The position numbers and the translations under genes are program-made. From an uncultured Thermodesulfovibrio sp. (GTDB lineage: Bacteria > Nitrospirota > Thermodesulfovibrionia > Thermodesulfovibrionales > JdFR-85): DNA of 46,646 nucleotides. The stretch lies in contig CAYMML010000003.1 in NCBI GenBank assembly GCA_964391515.1, forward strand, positions 1 to 46,646. The letters run 5' to 3'. Under the pieces are notes generated by a model. That model was not told the origin of the DNA and ran no database searches. It was given only the letters and a program-made list of their open reading frames with translations. Shown one piece after another: positions 40,374 through 44,984 of this stretch (position 1 is its first letter; each line of letters starts with the position of its first letter).

Positions 40374-40598
40374 CTATGCCTCCCGGGAGTTCTCCTTTAT
40401 CTTCTTCAGTATCTCCGGAAGTTCGCTCTTACATTCGGGGTACTTTCTGCTGAGAAACACCTTTATTGCCCGCATCTCAAGCCGTATCTCACTCAGGGAG
40501 TCTAACCTTTCAGAGAGTTTCTGTATCTCTGCAGTAAGGGTCTGTATCTCCTTCTCAAGGAGTCTTATTCTCTCTTCCATTATCTTTTCCTCTCGCAT
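40374..40598 (-). CDS. Small coiled-coil protein, unknown function
   Basis: 74-aa ORF rich in heptad-like E/K/L/I (EERIRLLEKEIQTLTAEIQKLSERLDSL). It abuts the hydrolase start with no gap. I recognise no family. Confidence 0.5.
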   Translation of the reverse strand: MREEKIMEERIRLLEKEIQTLTAEIQKLSERLDSLSEIRLEMRAIKVFLSRKYPECKSELPEILKKIKENSREA

Positions 40599-40626: not shown

Positions 40627-40713
40627 TTATCTCTTGTGCTTCATTCTCCTTCTGAGTTTTTTGTGTTTGTGCTTGTTGATCTTCCGCTTCCTCCACTTTT
40701 TAACACTCCCCAT
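40627..40713 (-). CDS. Unannotated 28-aa ultra-basic ORF, bS22 (AURKAIP1/COX24-like) ribosomal-protein-like
   Basis: Not in the supplied track because it is too short. The ATG at 40713 is preceded by AGGAGG 7 nt upstream (inside the end of the 1402-aa gene). It translates as MGSVKKWRKRKINKHKHKKLRRRMKHKR (18 of 28 residues K/R, plus 3 His) with TAA at 40629-40627. The N-terminal MGSV.KK.RKR…KH.KL.RR pattern matches my memory of actinobacterial bS22. Confidence 0.6.
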   Translation of the reverse strand: MGSVKKWRKRKINKHKHKKLRRRMKHKR

Positions 40714-40717
40714 TCCA

Positions 40718-43700
40718 TCACCTCCTTCCGTCTTGGTTTTTCATGTCTCTTACCCTTCTTGCCTGCTCCATGAAAGCCTCCATCTGAAGGCTCACCGTGG
40801 GGGACTCTGTCCCATCATAGGGGATGCTTATAAAGGGAACCCCGTAGGTCTCTGATATACCATTCATTATAGCCGTTACAACAGTTCCCGGCATACACCC
40901 GAAGGGCATGGCGTTTATTATACCTGAAGCACCCCTTTCGATCATATCAATCGCCTTGCCGATGCTCAAAACCGCCTCACCCTCGAACGAGTCGTCCAGA
41001 TAGGGAGAGGCCTTCTTCAGCACCACAGGGGTATCAGGCTCATGCGCCGTCCGTAGAAAGCCCTCAACCTCTTTTTCGTATCTTCTGGATACCCTTTTCT
41101 GGTAAAACTTTTTCAAAAAGAACTGTATAATACCAGAACGGTCAAATTTTCGCAAGGCCTTCCTGAGTGACATGTGGTTAATGTAGTAAATCCACTCATC
41201 CACAGGTGATAGCCATGCCTCACCGCCGAGTGCCTCTATCTTTCTTACGAGATCCTCATTGGAAAACCTGTTAGACCTTACAAATATCTCCCCCACTATG
41301 CCGATGACTGGTCTCCTTTCATCCCCTCCCTTAAGTGCATTAAACTCCACCGCCGCCTCTTTAAGTAACTTCTCCACATCACCGTTTGACCGGCTTCGTA
41401 GCATGGTCTTTAGTCTTTCCAGATAATGCTCATACACCCTCTGGGTCTCACCGTCCTGCCTCTCGTACGGACGGGTCTCATGGAGAAGTTTGGTAAGCAG
41501 GTCTATTGCAACTATCCCCTGCCATGACCTCTTTATAAAATCATTTCCCACCACCCCGAGGTCTGTATAGAAACTCACATCCTGAACCGGGGAGAAGATT
41601 GGAACGTCTTTAAAGCCAAGATCGGCAAGTATCATCCGCTGAAACAGGTTATACTGCCCGAAACGACAGGGCCCTGTCCCGGAGGGCATAAAAAAGGCGG
41701 ACTCATCGGGGTTGAAATCACTGGAAAGGACCTTTTTGAGCATGTCACCCGTGGTGACCGCACAGGGGTAACACTCCTTACCGGAGACATACCTCCTTCC
41801 GATGGCTATCGCCTCGGCATCGGTCCTGGGAAGGACCTCGGCAGGCACACCCACATACTCAAAGGCTGCCTCAATTGCGTAGGCGTGGTCGGACATGGGG
41901 GGGATATATATCCTCCTTCTCCTTCCGTTACCCTTTCCATTTAACTCCACCTGTGTCCTCTTCGGAATCAGGACCTTTGGTTTCTTCTTCCTTCCAGACT
42001 CCCTCTGTGCCATAAGACTGTCAAGAAACGCCTCACACCTGGTTATGGCACCGGCATCGGCGGAGTGCTCGTCTATCTCTATATGAAGGAGAGGCTTTGA
42101 ACCAAGTTCACGCTCAAGGTATTTGATAATGAAAGAATCCGGTCCACAGGAGAAGTTGCCAATGAGGATCGGGTAGAGGTCATCACGCCCCTTTATATAC
42201 CTTGCTGCAGAAAGTATCCTCTGCCCAGACCGCCAGTACATGTCTGGCCAGTCATCGTATATGTCAGGGGTGGGCAGAAAGTCCATAGGGATAGCAAGGA
42301 CATCAAGGGTTGCAAGTTTCCTCGGGATATCAAGATTTACACCCCTGTCAAAGGCATTGTAGGGCCTGCCAAAGACCACCACCTTTACCCGCTCGGCCTC
42401 TGAAAGCACATCCCCTGCCTTTCTGCTTATCTTTTCATAAAACTCCCTCTGTGCAGATAATGCCTTTTTAAATGCCCTCTCAATAGTGGAGGTTTCCACA
42501 TCCTCCCTCTTAAAAACCCTTTTCAGTTCACGGCAGAGGGCCTTCTCACCGCTCTTTACATTCACAACAGGAGCAATCACCCTCGCCTCCGGGAAGGCAA
42601 CCCTTATCTGGTATGGAAAACTCTGTGTAAGTGGGCATGCATGGCCACGCTCATACCTGCTCTCAGGGGGTGCCATGTTTATAAAACTGGGTATCAGGAG
42701 TTGGTCTATCCCCCTTTCAAGTAGGTCTCTTACATGGCCATAGCCTACCTTTACGGGAAAACATGTGTCGGCAAGCACCTTCTCAACCCCCAACTCTACC
42801 ACCCGGGCATTAGTCTCTGAAGAGACAACCGGTTCATACCCCAGTTCCCACATAAGTGTGCTCCAGAATGGCAGAAAGTCATGGAAAAAGAACACAAAGG
42901 GTATCCCGATCCTTCCCCTGGTAGGGCTTATCCCACCCTCCTGAAGCATCTTCTGGTAGTGCCTGTGTGGCTCAAGGAGTGCATCCATTCTGTATCTGAA
43001 CAGATCGGGTAGGTTCTCTCCACGCCTCCTCCTGATATCGTATTTTTCACACCTACCGCCGTAGAAGAGATACCCGCTTTCACCCTCTATCTTCACCCTG
43101 TTTATCTCACAGTGGTTCTCACACCCCTTACACTCAAAAGAACTCACCTCGTATGGTCTGTTTGCAAGGTCAAACCCCTTAAAGGTTGAACTGCCGGGGT
43201 TTTTGTCCCTGAACTCCTTTGCTATTAGTGCCATACCGATTGCACCGGTCACATCATGGTTAGGGGGAACGGTGATCTCCCTTCCAAGGAACTTCTCAAA
43301 GGCGGCCACAACCGCCTTGTTGAAGGCGGTGCCTCCCTGGAAGAATATCCTTTCCCCGATGTTACGGCCTGCCACAACCCGGTTTATATAGTTTTCCACT
43401 ATGGAGTACGAAAGCCCGGCAAGGAGATCCTCTCTGGATGCCCCCCTCTGGAGGTTTGACATGAGGGAGTTTTCCATAAAAACGGTGCACCGCTCACCAA
43501 GCCTGCAGGGCGATGAAGACCTGAAGGCGGTTTCGGCAAACTCCCCCTTTATGGAGACATCGAGTTTCTCAGCCTGCTCCTCAAGAAAAGAGCCTGTGCC
43601 TGCTGCACATGCCTTGTTCATCTCAAAGTCAACTATGATCCCATCCTTGAGAGATATGTACTTCGAGTCCTGCCCGCCTATCTCGAAGATGGTATCCACC

Positions 43701-44926
43701 TGAGGGTCTATAAAGGCCGCCGCCTTAGCCTGTGCGGTGATCTCATTCTTCACTATATCGGCACCAACAAAGTCCGCTATCATATACCTGCCTGAACCCG
43801 TCGTTCCAACCCCCCTTATGGAAACCCTGTCTCCCACCTCCTCCCATATCTCCCTGAGTCCCCTCCTTACCGCCTCGATGGGCCTTCCCGCGGTCATGAG
43901 GTACCTCTTTGAGATCAATCTTCCCTCTTCGTCTATCAGGGCAAGGTTTGTGCTGATTGAGCCAATGTCTATACCAAGATAGGCGGGTATCTCTTTACCG
44001 TCATCCTCAGAAAGGGTGACTGCCTCCACAGCAGTAACTGAAAGATGCCGTTTCTCAAAATTATCACCATCCTCAATTAGAGGTGGCTGGCCAGGGGTTG
44101 CAACCTCCGATTTCAGTGAAAGTGCCGAGAGGTCATCCCTGTGAATCTTCACGAGATCTCCCTCCTTTTCCGCCCTGATAACTGCCCCCACCGCACCGGT
44201 CAGATGGGGCATGGCAGGCACAACGAGTTCCTTCAGGCCAAACACCTCCCTGAATGCCCTGACAACACCCCTGTTCAGGGCCACACCCCCCTGAAATGCC
44301 ACCTTTGGCACCAACTTTCTCCCCCTCACTATGGAGCCCTTGAAGTTCCTTGCCACTGCAAAGCATAAACCACCTATTATGTCCTCAACGGGGGTGGCTA
44401 TCTGCTGAAGGTGGATCATGTCAGACTTGGCAAACACACTGCATCTACCTGCTATGCGGGGTGGTTTACTTGATTTAAGGGCGATCTCGCTGAACTCCTC
44501 AATACTGAAACCAAGCCTTTCTGCCTGCTGATCAAGGAAAGAGCCCGTCCCGGCTGCACATACCGAGTTAAGGGAAAAGTCCTTGATATTCTCACCGTCA
44601 AGGATTATGAGTTTTGAGTCCTCACCGCCCATCTCCATCACGGTATTTACAGAGGGCTCAAAGTGGCGTACCCCCTCTATCTGGGCTATTAGTTCATTAA
44701 TGATCGGGGTACCAAGGCGTTCACCGATTTTCTTACCGGTAGAACCTGTAAAGGCTATATAAAAATCCTGAAATTCTTCAAAGACCGGAGAGATAAGTTC
44801 TGTGAATGTCTCAACAGGACGGCCATAATGCCTTTTATAGAAGTGCCTTTGTAGTTTAAGATCGGCATCTAAGACAACGAGTTTTATGCTTACCGATCCC
44901 CCATCAACCCCTACCATGTACTGCAT
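40718..44926 (-). CDS. Fused double BcrAD/BadFG/HgdC-type activase ATPase plus dehydratase-like (DUF2229-type) domains
   Basis: 1402 aa with AAGGAGGTGA as the SD. Two tandem acetate/sugar-kinase-fold ATPase modules each carry the cluster-ligand context (NSVCAAGTGSFLDQQAERL…RCSVFAKSD and NKACAAGTGSFLEEQAEKL…RCTVFMENS). A Cys motif follows (FECKGCENHCEINRV…GGRCEKYD), then about 750 aa resembling the uncharacterised 'CoA-substrate-specific enzyme activase' C-terminal region. Confidence 0.85.
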   Translation of the reverse strand: MQYMVGVDGGSVSIKLVVLDADLKLQRHFYKRHYGRPVETFTELISPVFEEFQDFYIAFTGSTGKKIGERLGTPIINELIAQIEGVRHFEPSVNTVMEMGGEDSKLIILDGENIKDFSLNSVCAAGTGSFLDQQAERLGFSIEEFSEIALKSSKPPRIAGRCSVFAKSDMIHLQQIATPVEDIIGGLCFAVARNFKGSIVRGRKLVPKVAFQGGVALNRGVVRAFREVFGLKELVVPAMPHLTGAVGAVIRAEKEGDLVKIHRDDLSALSLKSEVATPGQPPLIEDGDNFEKRHLSVTAVEAVTLSEDDGKEIPAYLGIDIGSISTNLALIDEEGRLISKRYLMTAGRPIEAVRRGLREIWEEVGDRVSIRGVGTTGSGRYMIADFVGADIVKNEITAQAKAAAFIDPQVDTIFEIGGQDSKYISLKDGIIVDFEMNKACAAGTGSFLEEQAEKLDVSIKGEFAETAFRSSSPCRLGERCTVFMENSLMSNLQRGASREDLLAGLSYSIVENYINRVVAGRNIGERIFFQGGTAFNKAVVAAFEKFLGREITVPPNHDVTGAIGMALIAKEFRDKNPGSSTFKGFDLANRPYEVSSFECKGCENHCEINRVKIEGESGYLFYGGRCEKYDIRRRRGENLPDLFRYRMDALLEPHRHYQKMLQEGGISPTRGRIGIPFVFFFHDFLPFWSTLMWELGYEPVVSSETNARVVELGVEKVLADTCFPVKVGYGHVRDLLERGIDQLLIPSFINMAPPESRYERGHACPLTQSFPYQIRVAFPEARVIAPVVNVKSGEKALCRELKRVFKREDVETSTIERAFKKALSAQREFYEKISRKAGDVLSEAERVKVVVFGRPYNAFDRGVNLDIPRKLATLDVLAIPMDFLPTPDIYDDWPDMYWRSGQRILSAARYIKGRDDLYPILIGNFSCGPDSFIIKYLERELGSKPLLHIEIDEHSADAGAITRCEAFLDSLMAQRESGRKKKPKVLIPKRTQVELNGKGNGRRRRIYIPPMSDHAYAIEAAFEYVGVPAEVLPRTDAEAIAIGRRYVSGKECYPCAVTTGDMLKKVLSSDFNPDESAFFMPSGTGPCRFGQYNLFQRMILADLGFKDVPIFSPVQDVSFYTDLGVVGNDFIKRSWQGIVAIDLLTKLLHETRPYERQDGETQRVYEHYLERLKTMLRSRSNGDVEKLLKEAAVEFNALKGGDERRPVIGIVGEIFVRSNRFSNEDLVRKIEALGGEAWLSPVDEWIYYINHMSLRKALRKFDRSGIIQFFLKKFYQKRVSRRYEKEVEGFLRTAHEPDTPVVLKKASPYLDDSFEGEAVLSIGKAIDMIERGASGIINAMPFGCMPGTVVTAIMNGISETYGVPFISIPYDGTESPTVSLQMEAFMEQARRVRDMKNQDGRR

Positions 44927-44984
44927 CCTATCACCTCCTTATGGATATTATACCCAAGAAGAACCCTTTTATGAGCAAACCATT

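Follow-up and report, generated by a model that had tools for sequence, protein, structure and literature searches.

Does the short gap behind a 1402-aa gene of a hot-spring Thermodesulfovibrionales bacterium (Nitrospirota) hold a gene of its own, and if so, what is its strongly basic product of only 28 residues? We addressed this question in a stretch of 46,646 nt, hereafter called the window, for which a preliminary description had proposed a hidden micro-protein resembling ribosomal protein bS22. Re-reading of the minus strand reproduced the proposed ORF in all its details, namely its location (40627..40713, -), its length of 28 codons, and its ATG and TAA (40629-40627) as start and stop; the coding codons span 40713 to 40630 (-). 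The gap of 119 nt that had been described after the 1402-aa gene was also correct, as measured from the end of that gene (TGA 40718-40720) to the start of a 74-aa ORF (40598). Likewise, the Shine-Dalgarno (SD) sequence had been called perfect, and AGGAGG indeed stands 7 nt ahead of the ATG; this core occupies 40726-40721 (-) within an extended SD of 11 nt, AAGGAGGTGAT, and the minus strand at the start reads ...GAAGGAGGTGATGGA-ATG. The translation is MGSVKKWRKRKINKHKHKKLRRRMKHKR, in which 16 of the 28 residues are Lys or Arg and 3 are His, with a calculated pI of 12.0. The features needed for the argument are as follows.

40627..40713, minus strand: CDS of very probable bS22 (AURKAIP1/COX24_C family), assigned from the Pfam match, conservation, pN/pS, and profile matches in the PDB
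40717..40727, minus strand: extended SD AAGGAGGTGAT, which includes the TGA of the upstream gene (40718-40720)
40718..44926, minus strand: 1402-aa activase fusion, the upstream neighbor, assigned from domain matches; a synteny partner kept within the class Thermodesulfovibrionia
40374..40598, minus strand: 74-aa coiled-coil protein, the downstream neighbor; a synteny partner kept within the order

The window peptide matched the Pfam family PF08213 (COX24_C, also known as AURKAIP1/COX24 or DUF1713; gathering cut-off 23 bits) with a score of 29.5 bits and an E-value of 6.6e-7, its residues 1-28 lying on profile positions 1-28 of 33; such a match far exceeds what chance would give. The same profile found a match in 39/41 genomes of the order, representing 25/25 genera, with 34/41 above the cut-off, and scored above the cut-off in 202/251 of the Nitrospirota genomes sampled. 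There was one main match per genome, and three genomes had a second, weaker or duplicate match. In 30 orthologous loci of the order, the peptide was conserved from its first residue, the start codon being GTG in 26/30 and ATG in 4/30, and the start, SD, and stop all held fixed positions; the SD GGAGGTGA lay at a constant distance from the start codon in nearly all of these loci. Among the twelve forms of 28 aa, nucleotide identity was 83% in the ORF, 66% in the SD region, and 30-38% in the flanks. Third codon positions varied in 21/22 columns, versus 8/22 for first and second positions, and pN/pS was 0.13 in the bS22 frame versus 1.0-2.6 in four other frames. The conserved reading frame with synonymous-biased substitution, for which the preliminary description had looked to relatives, was thus found there.

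One antisense frame was stop-free and gave a pN/pS of 0.19, so that pN/pS alone cannot separate it from the bS22 frame. This low value is an expected artefact, because Lys and Arg codons are purine-rich, and the antisense frame has neither a conserved start or SD nor a family match. In the window, this frame is a 73-aa antisense ORF at 40634-40855 (+), which runs across both the bS22 gene and the last part of the activase gene; the sole reason for its being open is that the complements of Lys and Arg codons contain no stops, and it is very likely spurious. We considered on this basis whether there might be no gene here at all, with the 28-codon ORF arising by chance in purine-rich intergenic DNA or with the antisense ORF as the real gene. 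The short length and simple composition of the ORF would suit such an explanation, as would an open antisense frame with a pN/pS that is also low, but it is contradicted by a Pfam match exceeding the gathering cut-off, by the fixed positions of start, SD, and stop in the 30 loci, by the much higher identity of the ORF than of its flanks, and by the antisense ORF, which continues on the strand opposite the activase gene. The conservation data already refute this explanation, and we consider its probability practically nil. The 28-codon ORF is a real gene under purifying selection, a single-copy member of the COX24_C family with conserved synteny.

Is this family member bS22 itself? A six-frame search of the source genome with PF08213 recovered the site at 28.2 bits, and six-frame searches with PF08213 and with the NCBIfam model NF047430 (ribo_bS22, an equivalog) detected no second candidate in the assembly (2.2 Mb, 95% complete). 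A separate bona fide bS22 gene elsewhere, which the preliminary description had named as a possible refutation, was therefore not found in this 95%-complete genome. The comparison with bS22 family models that it had suggested gave a divided outcome: the peptide passed PF08213 (29.5 versus 23 bits) and fell short of NF047430 (21.4 bits against a cut-off of 34). Its family-level relatives also remained below the latter cut-off, at 22.6-24.9 bits, whereas among 7 orthologues that were scored from sister families within the order, 6 passed it with 40.5-59.8 bits and the seventh (L016) reached 31.7. Most of the tested sister-family orthologues sit between the same two neighbors, the activase gene and the 74-aa ORF. 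Compared with the sister families, the window-family form has 28 aa, lacks the last 2-4 residues, and carries I12-N13 in place of M-S. Because the positional orthologues in the sister families pass the model, the NF047430 miss points to a derived, shortened form rather than to a different gene. The model's cut-off therefore misses the 28-aa sub-lineage, which is given only the generic AURKAIP1/COX24 name.

An alignment of 13 Nitrospirota peptides was then used as a profile against the PDB, and the only matches were ribosomal small-subunit chains of bS22 or mS38. The best were bS22 of Mycobacterium smegmatis (E 9e-10) and of Cutibacterium (E 1.7e-9), and the profile also matched mS38/AURKAIP1/Cox24 of mammalian, plant, and yeast mitoribosomes (E 1e-6 to 1e-3). 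Across the 13 sequences, K14, H15, K16, K19, and L20 were invariant. In a pairwise alignment with M. smegmatis bS22, residues 1-27 of the window peptide aligned without gaps, with K16 opposite K16, and the KxKH.KL core around Lys16 was present; the peptide also aligned with plant mS38, in the C-terminal domain of the latter. It is a stand-alone peptide that matches bS22 in its tiny size (about 28-33 aa for that protein) and its extreme basicity, and its gene is single-copy, vertically conserved in the lineage, and under purifying selection. The window gene thus very probably encodes bS22, the small-subunit ribosomal protein that in bacteria corresponds to mitochondrial mS38/AURKAIP1/Cox24. The bS22-type (AURKAIP1/COX24) reading first offered from the letters is borne out by the Pfam score, the gap-free mycobacterial alignment including Lys16, the orthologues that pass the equivalog, and the lack of a second candidate. 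We infer the ribosomal location of the Nitrospirota protein by homology only.

Among known systems, the window peptide most resembles bS22 of M. smegmatis and M. tuberculosis (MSMEG_0945; PDB 5O5J, 5O61, 5XYU, and others). The two share the N-terminal MGSV start, a 27-residue gap-free alignment in which K14, K16, H17, K19, and L20 are conserved, an extremely basic composition, a length of about 30 aa, and a single gene copy. Unlike the 33-aa mycobacterial protein, the window peptide has 28 aa and no C-terminal tail, and it carries Trp7 and His15 where actinobacterial bS22 has Lys at both positions. The bS22 proteins of Borrelia burgdorferi (bb0822) and Flavobacterium johnsoniae (Fjoh_1533) are likewise about 30 aa long and highly basic, and the Borrelia gene has a GUG start, as do most Thermodesulfovibrionales orthologues. 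These two are more divergent, however, and neither was retrieved in the PDB by the Nitrospirota profile at E<=1; they were identified from cryo-EM density, whereas the window bS22 was identified from sequence alone. Mitochondrial mS38 (AURKAIP1 or yeast Cox24, PF08213) shares the conserved basic domain, which it carries at its C-terminus (SVKKKRKKKMNKHKYRKLRK in the plant protein, for instance), but is a protein of 70-200 aa with N-terminal extensions and targeting sequences, whereas in bacteria the domain makes up the whole protein.

These structurally characterized homologues indicate what the window peptide may do. By cryo-EM, bS22 has been seen in a pocket of 16S rRNA formed by h2/h27/h44/h45 in Mycobacterium, Cutibacterium, Flavobacterium, and Borrelia, and it contacts 23S rRNA at H68 in Borrelia (PMC10618245) and at H70 in Flavobacterium (PMC7797042). 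In M. smegmatis, Lys16 of bS22 contacts h44 near the aminoglycoside site, and strains without the protein, which is dispensable, are more sensitive to aminoglycosides (PMC10081302). By analogy, the polycationic peptide of 28 residues would form a short bent helix that inserts into the h2/h27/h44/h45 pocket adjoining the decoding center, touches 23S rRNA at the subunit interface, and neutralizes and stabilizes the rRNA there. The Borrelia work anticipated that other bacteria would prove to carry short bS22 genes too, often with a GUG start (PMC10618245), and the window gene is one such case.

We next considered how widely the gene is distributed. A pattern scan with one genome per species placed close relatives of the peptide in Syntrophorhabdaceae, Syntrophus, Desulfobacteraceae, Myxococcales, and Actinomycetota. 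Within Nitrospirota, bS22/COX24_C was found in 0/48 high-quality genomes of four families (f20, f22, f23, and f24; for example G042, G044, G045, G053, and G091), and a second search of five of these 48 genomes, using a profile built from the lineage itself, brought up nothing credible. This pattern suggests lineage-specific loss in the four families. The protein is otherwise nearly universal in Nitrospirota, and it is also present in Desulfobacterota and Myxococcota.

The 0/48 result implies that ribosomes in the phylum can work without bS22, and it bears on whether the peptide, even as a bS22 homologue, is a stoichiometric ribosome component; it might instead be a free polycationic nucleic-acid-binding peptide that, in a thermophile, could have a condensing function or serve as a chaperone for RNA or DNA. 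The dispensability of bS22 in M. smegmatis (PMC10081302) and the shortened window-family form, which stays under the NF047430 equivalog cut-off, are compatible with such a role. On the other hand, its 27 N-terminal residues match structurally defined bS22 without gaps, with K16, H17, and L20 kept, all PDB matches of the profile are ribosomal small-subunit proteins, and the gene is single-copy, so that the genome would have no other source of ribosomal bS22. We therefore regard a free peptide as improbable and favor the assignment to ribosomal bS22.

The genomic setting of the gene had been called odd in the preliminary description, since the ORF is embedded among non-ribosomal genes. The 1402-aa upstream protein is a fusion of a double BcrAD/BadFG activase, a DUF2229 domain, and an HGD-D-like region. 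Within the order Thermodesulfovibrionales, the peptide gene lies behind the C-terminus of such an activase fusion in 27/30 loci, and additionally at a weak match (L010). The 74-aa coiled-coil ORF comes next after the peptide gene in 22/30 loci and is also present in L046, L065, and L079; it matched no Pfam or NCBIfam family, and in the Atlas it fell only into unnamed clusters, with Nitrospirota as the commonest phylum. The activase link extended to other orders within the class, where 6/8 tested loci had it (in families f15, f16, and f18, and not in f14 and f17), and it is also present in named MAGs. Outside the class, the link was not seen in the Nitrospira-like families, the Leptospirillum-like families, or the other phyla sampled. 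The activase-bS22 gene order is thus an old synteny at the class level, shared by most sampled Thermodesulfovibrionia lineages.

Elsewhere, in other Nitrospirota and in Desulfobacterota, the neighbors of bS22 include SecA, ABC transporters, a SpoU methylase/UPF0047 pair, a sigma-54 activator, and others. Because the peptide family stands amid unrelated genes in these lineages, a non-ribosomal setting is the rule for bS22; the mycobacterial gene, too, lies outside ribosomal-protein operons, as does the window gene. The oddity first attributed to the context therefore did not hold, as most lineages sampled within the class keep this setting, and non-ribosomal neighbors are usual in other lineages as well.

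The conserved order of activase, peptide, and usually the 74-aa ORF in most sampled Thermodesulfovibrionia lineages raises the alternative that the peptide is functionally tied to the activase fusion or to the 74-aa protein, either as an accessory subunit or as a coupling ORF that controls downstream genes. The SD of the peptide gene in the window, which overlaps the TGA stop codon of the activase gene, would fit such a tie. Across relatives, however, the distance between activase and peptide ranges from about 5 to over 1000 nt, and because this spacing varies so widely, tight translational coupling is not conserved. The family also occurs without these neighbors in Nitrospira-like and Leptospirillum-like families, Desulfobacterota, Myxococcota, and Actinomycetota, and the amino-acid sequence is strongly selected and matches a ribosomal family. 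A functional tie to the neighbors is accordingly very improbable, and the assignment to bS22 is preferred here as well. There is only a slim chance that the class-wide activase linkage is functional, with the supply of bS22 translationally coupled, or that the truncated 28-aa bS22 gives these thermophiles a differently tuned decoding-center pocket.

In one relative from the same class (G260:C31:5342-5434 (-), corresponding to L066 4046-4138), the bS22 frame joins the upstream 1228-aa activase frame with a single TAG between them. This arrangement is probably a coincidence of frame, since both an SD and a GTG start occur there. We also examined whether the peptide could be a C-terminal extension of the activase made by readthrough or frameshifting, and rejected this, as the two lie in different frames in the window and their separation varies in relatives.

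We then compared these results with public annotation. The exact window peptide is already present in NCBI nr. Near-identical NCBI peptides from Nitrospirota and Thermodesulfovibrionales bacteria are named 'AURKAIP1/COX24 domain-containing protein', and one near-identical entry is named '30S ribosomal protein bS22 [Thermodesulfovibrionales bacterium]'. The expectation that annotation would easily miss the gene was thus mistaken, as the NCBI pipeline does list the peptide; the ORF was hidden in that it is below the length cut-off of the ORF track, and is visible in the public annotation in nr. Other bS22 genes had fared less well, the Borrelia gene having been unannotated (PMC10618245) and the Flavobacterium gene having been listed as a hypothetical protein (PMC7797042). 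In the paper library that was searched, none of the papers paired bS22 with Nitrospira-type names. The bS22 gene described here is already known and adds nothing new on mechanism. Under the bS22 assignment, the ORF of fewer than 30 codons that a length cut-off had passed over genuinely encodes a ribosomal protein, and the residual points of interest are the 28-aa sub-lineage that fails the equivalog, the class-level activase synteny, and the Nitrospirota families that appear to have lost bS22.

Finally, we examined the expression signals of the gene. Promoter and terminator counts around the bS22 gene were at the level of shuffled sequence, and nothing in the scan was particular to the peptide. 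The assembly of this genome lacks the 16S rRNA 3' end. Among sequencing runs, the window DNA was listed in one hot-springs metagenome DNA run, which may have yielded the assembly, and in no RNA run. The 11-mer AAGGAGGTGAT occurs in 14 copies in the 2.2-Mb genome, 6 of them ahead of ORFs, and it precedes both the activase fusion (44930-44940, -) and the bS22 gene (40717-40727, -). Its presence before bS22 fits strong translation initiation. The bS22 gene probably shares a transcript with the 1402-aa activase gene that lies upstream, and its translation would start from one of the strongest SDs of the genome, at the overlap with the activase stop codon. The same perfect 11-nt SD was also observed in contig C257 of G000 (828-935, +), where it stands ahead of a 35-aa ORF with four Cys residues (CxxC...CxxC), possibly a small zinc-ribbon protein.
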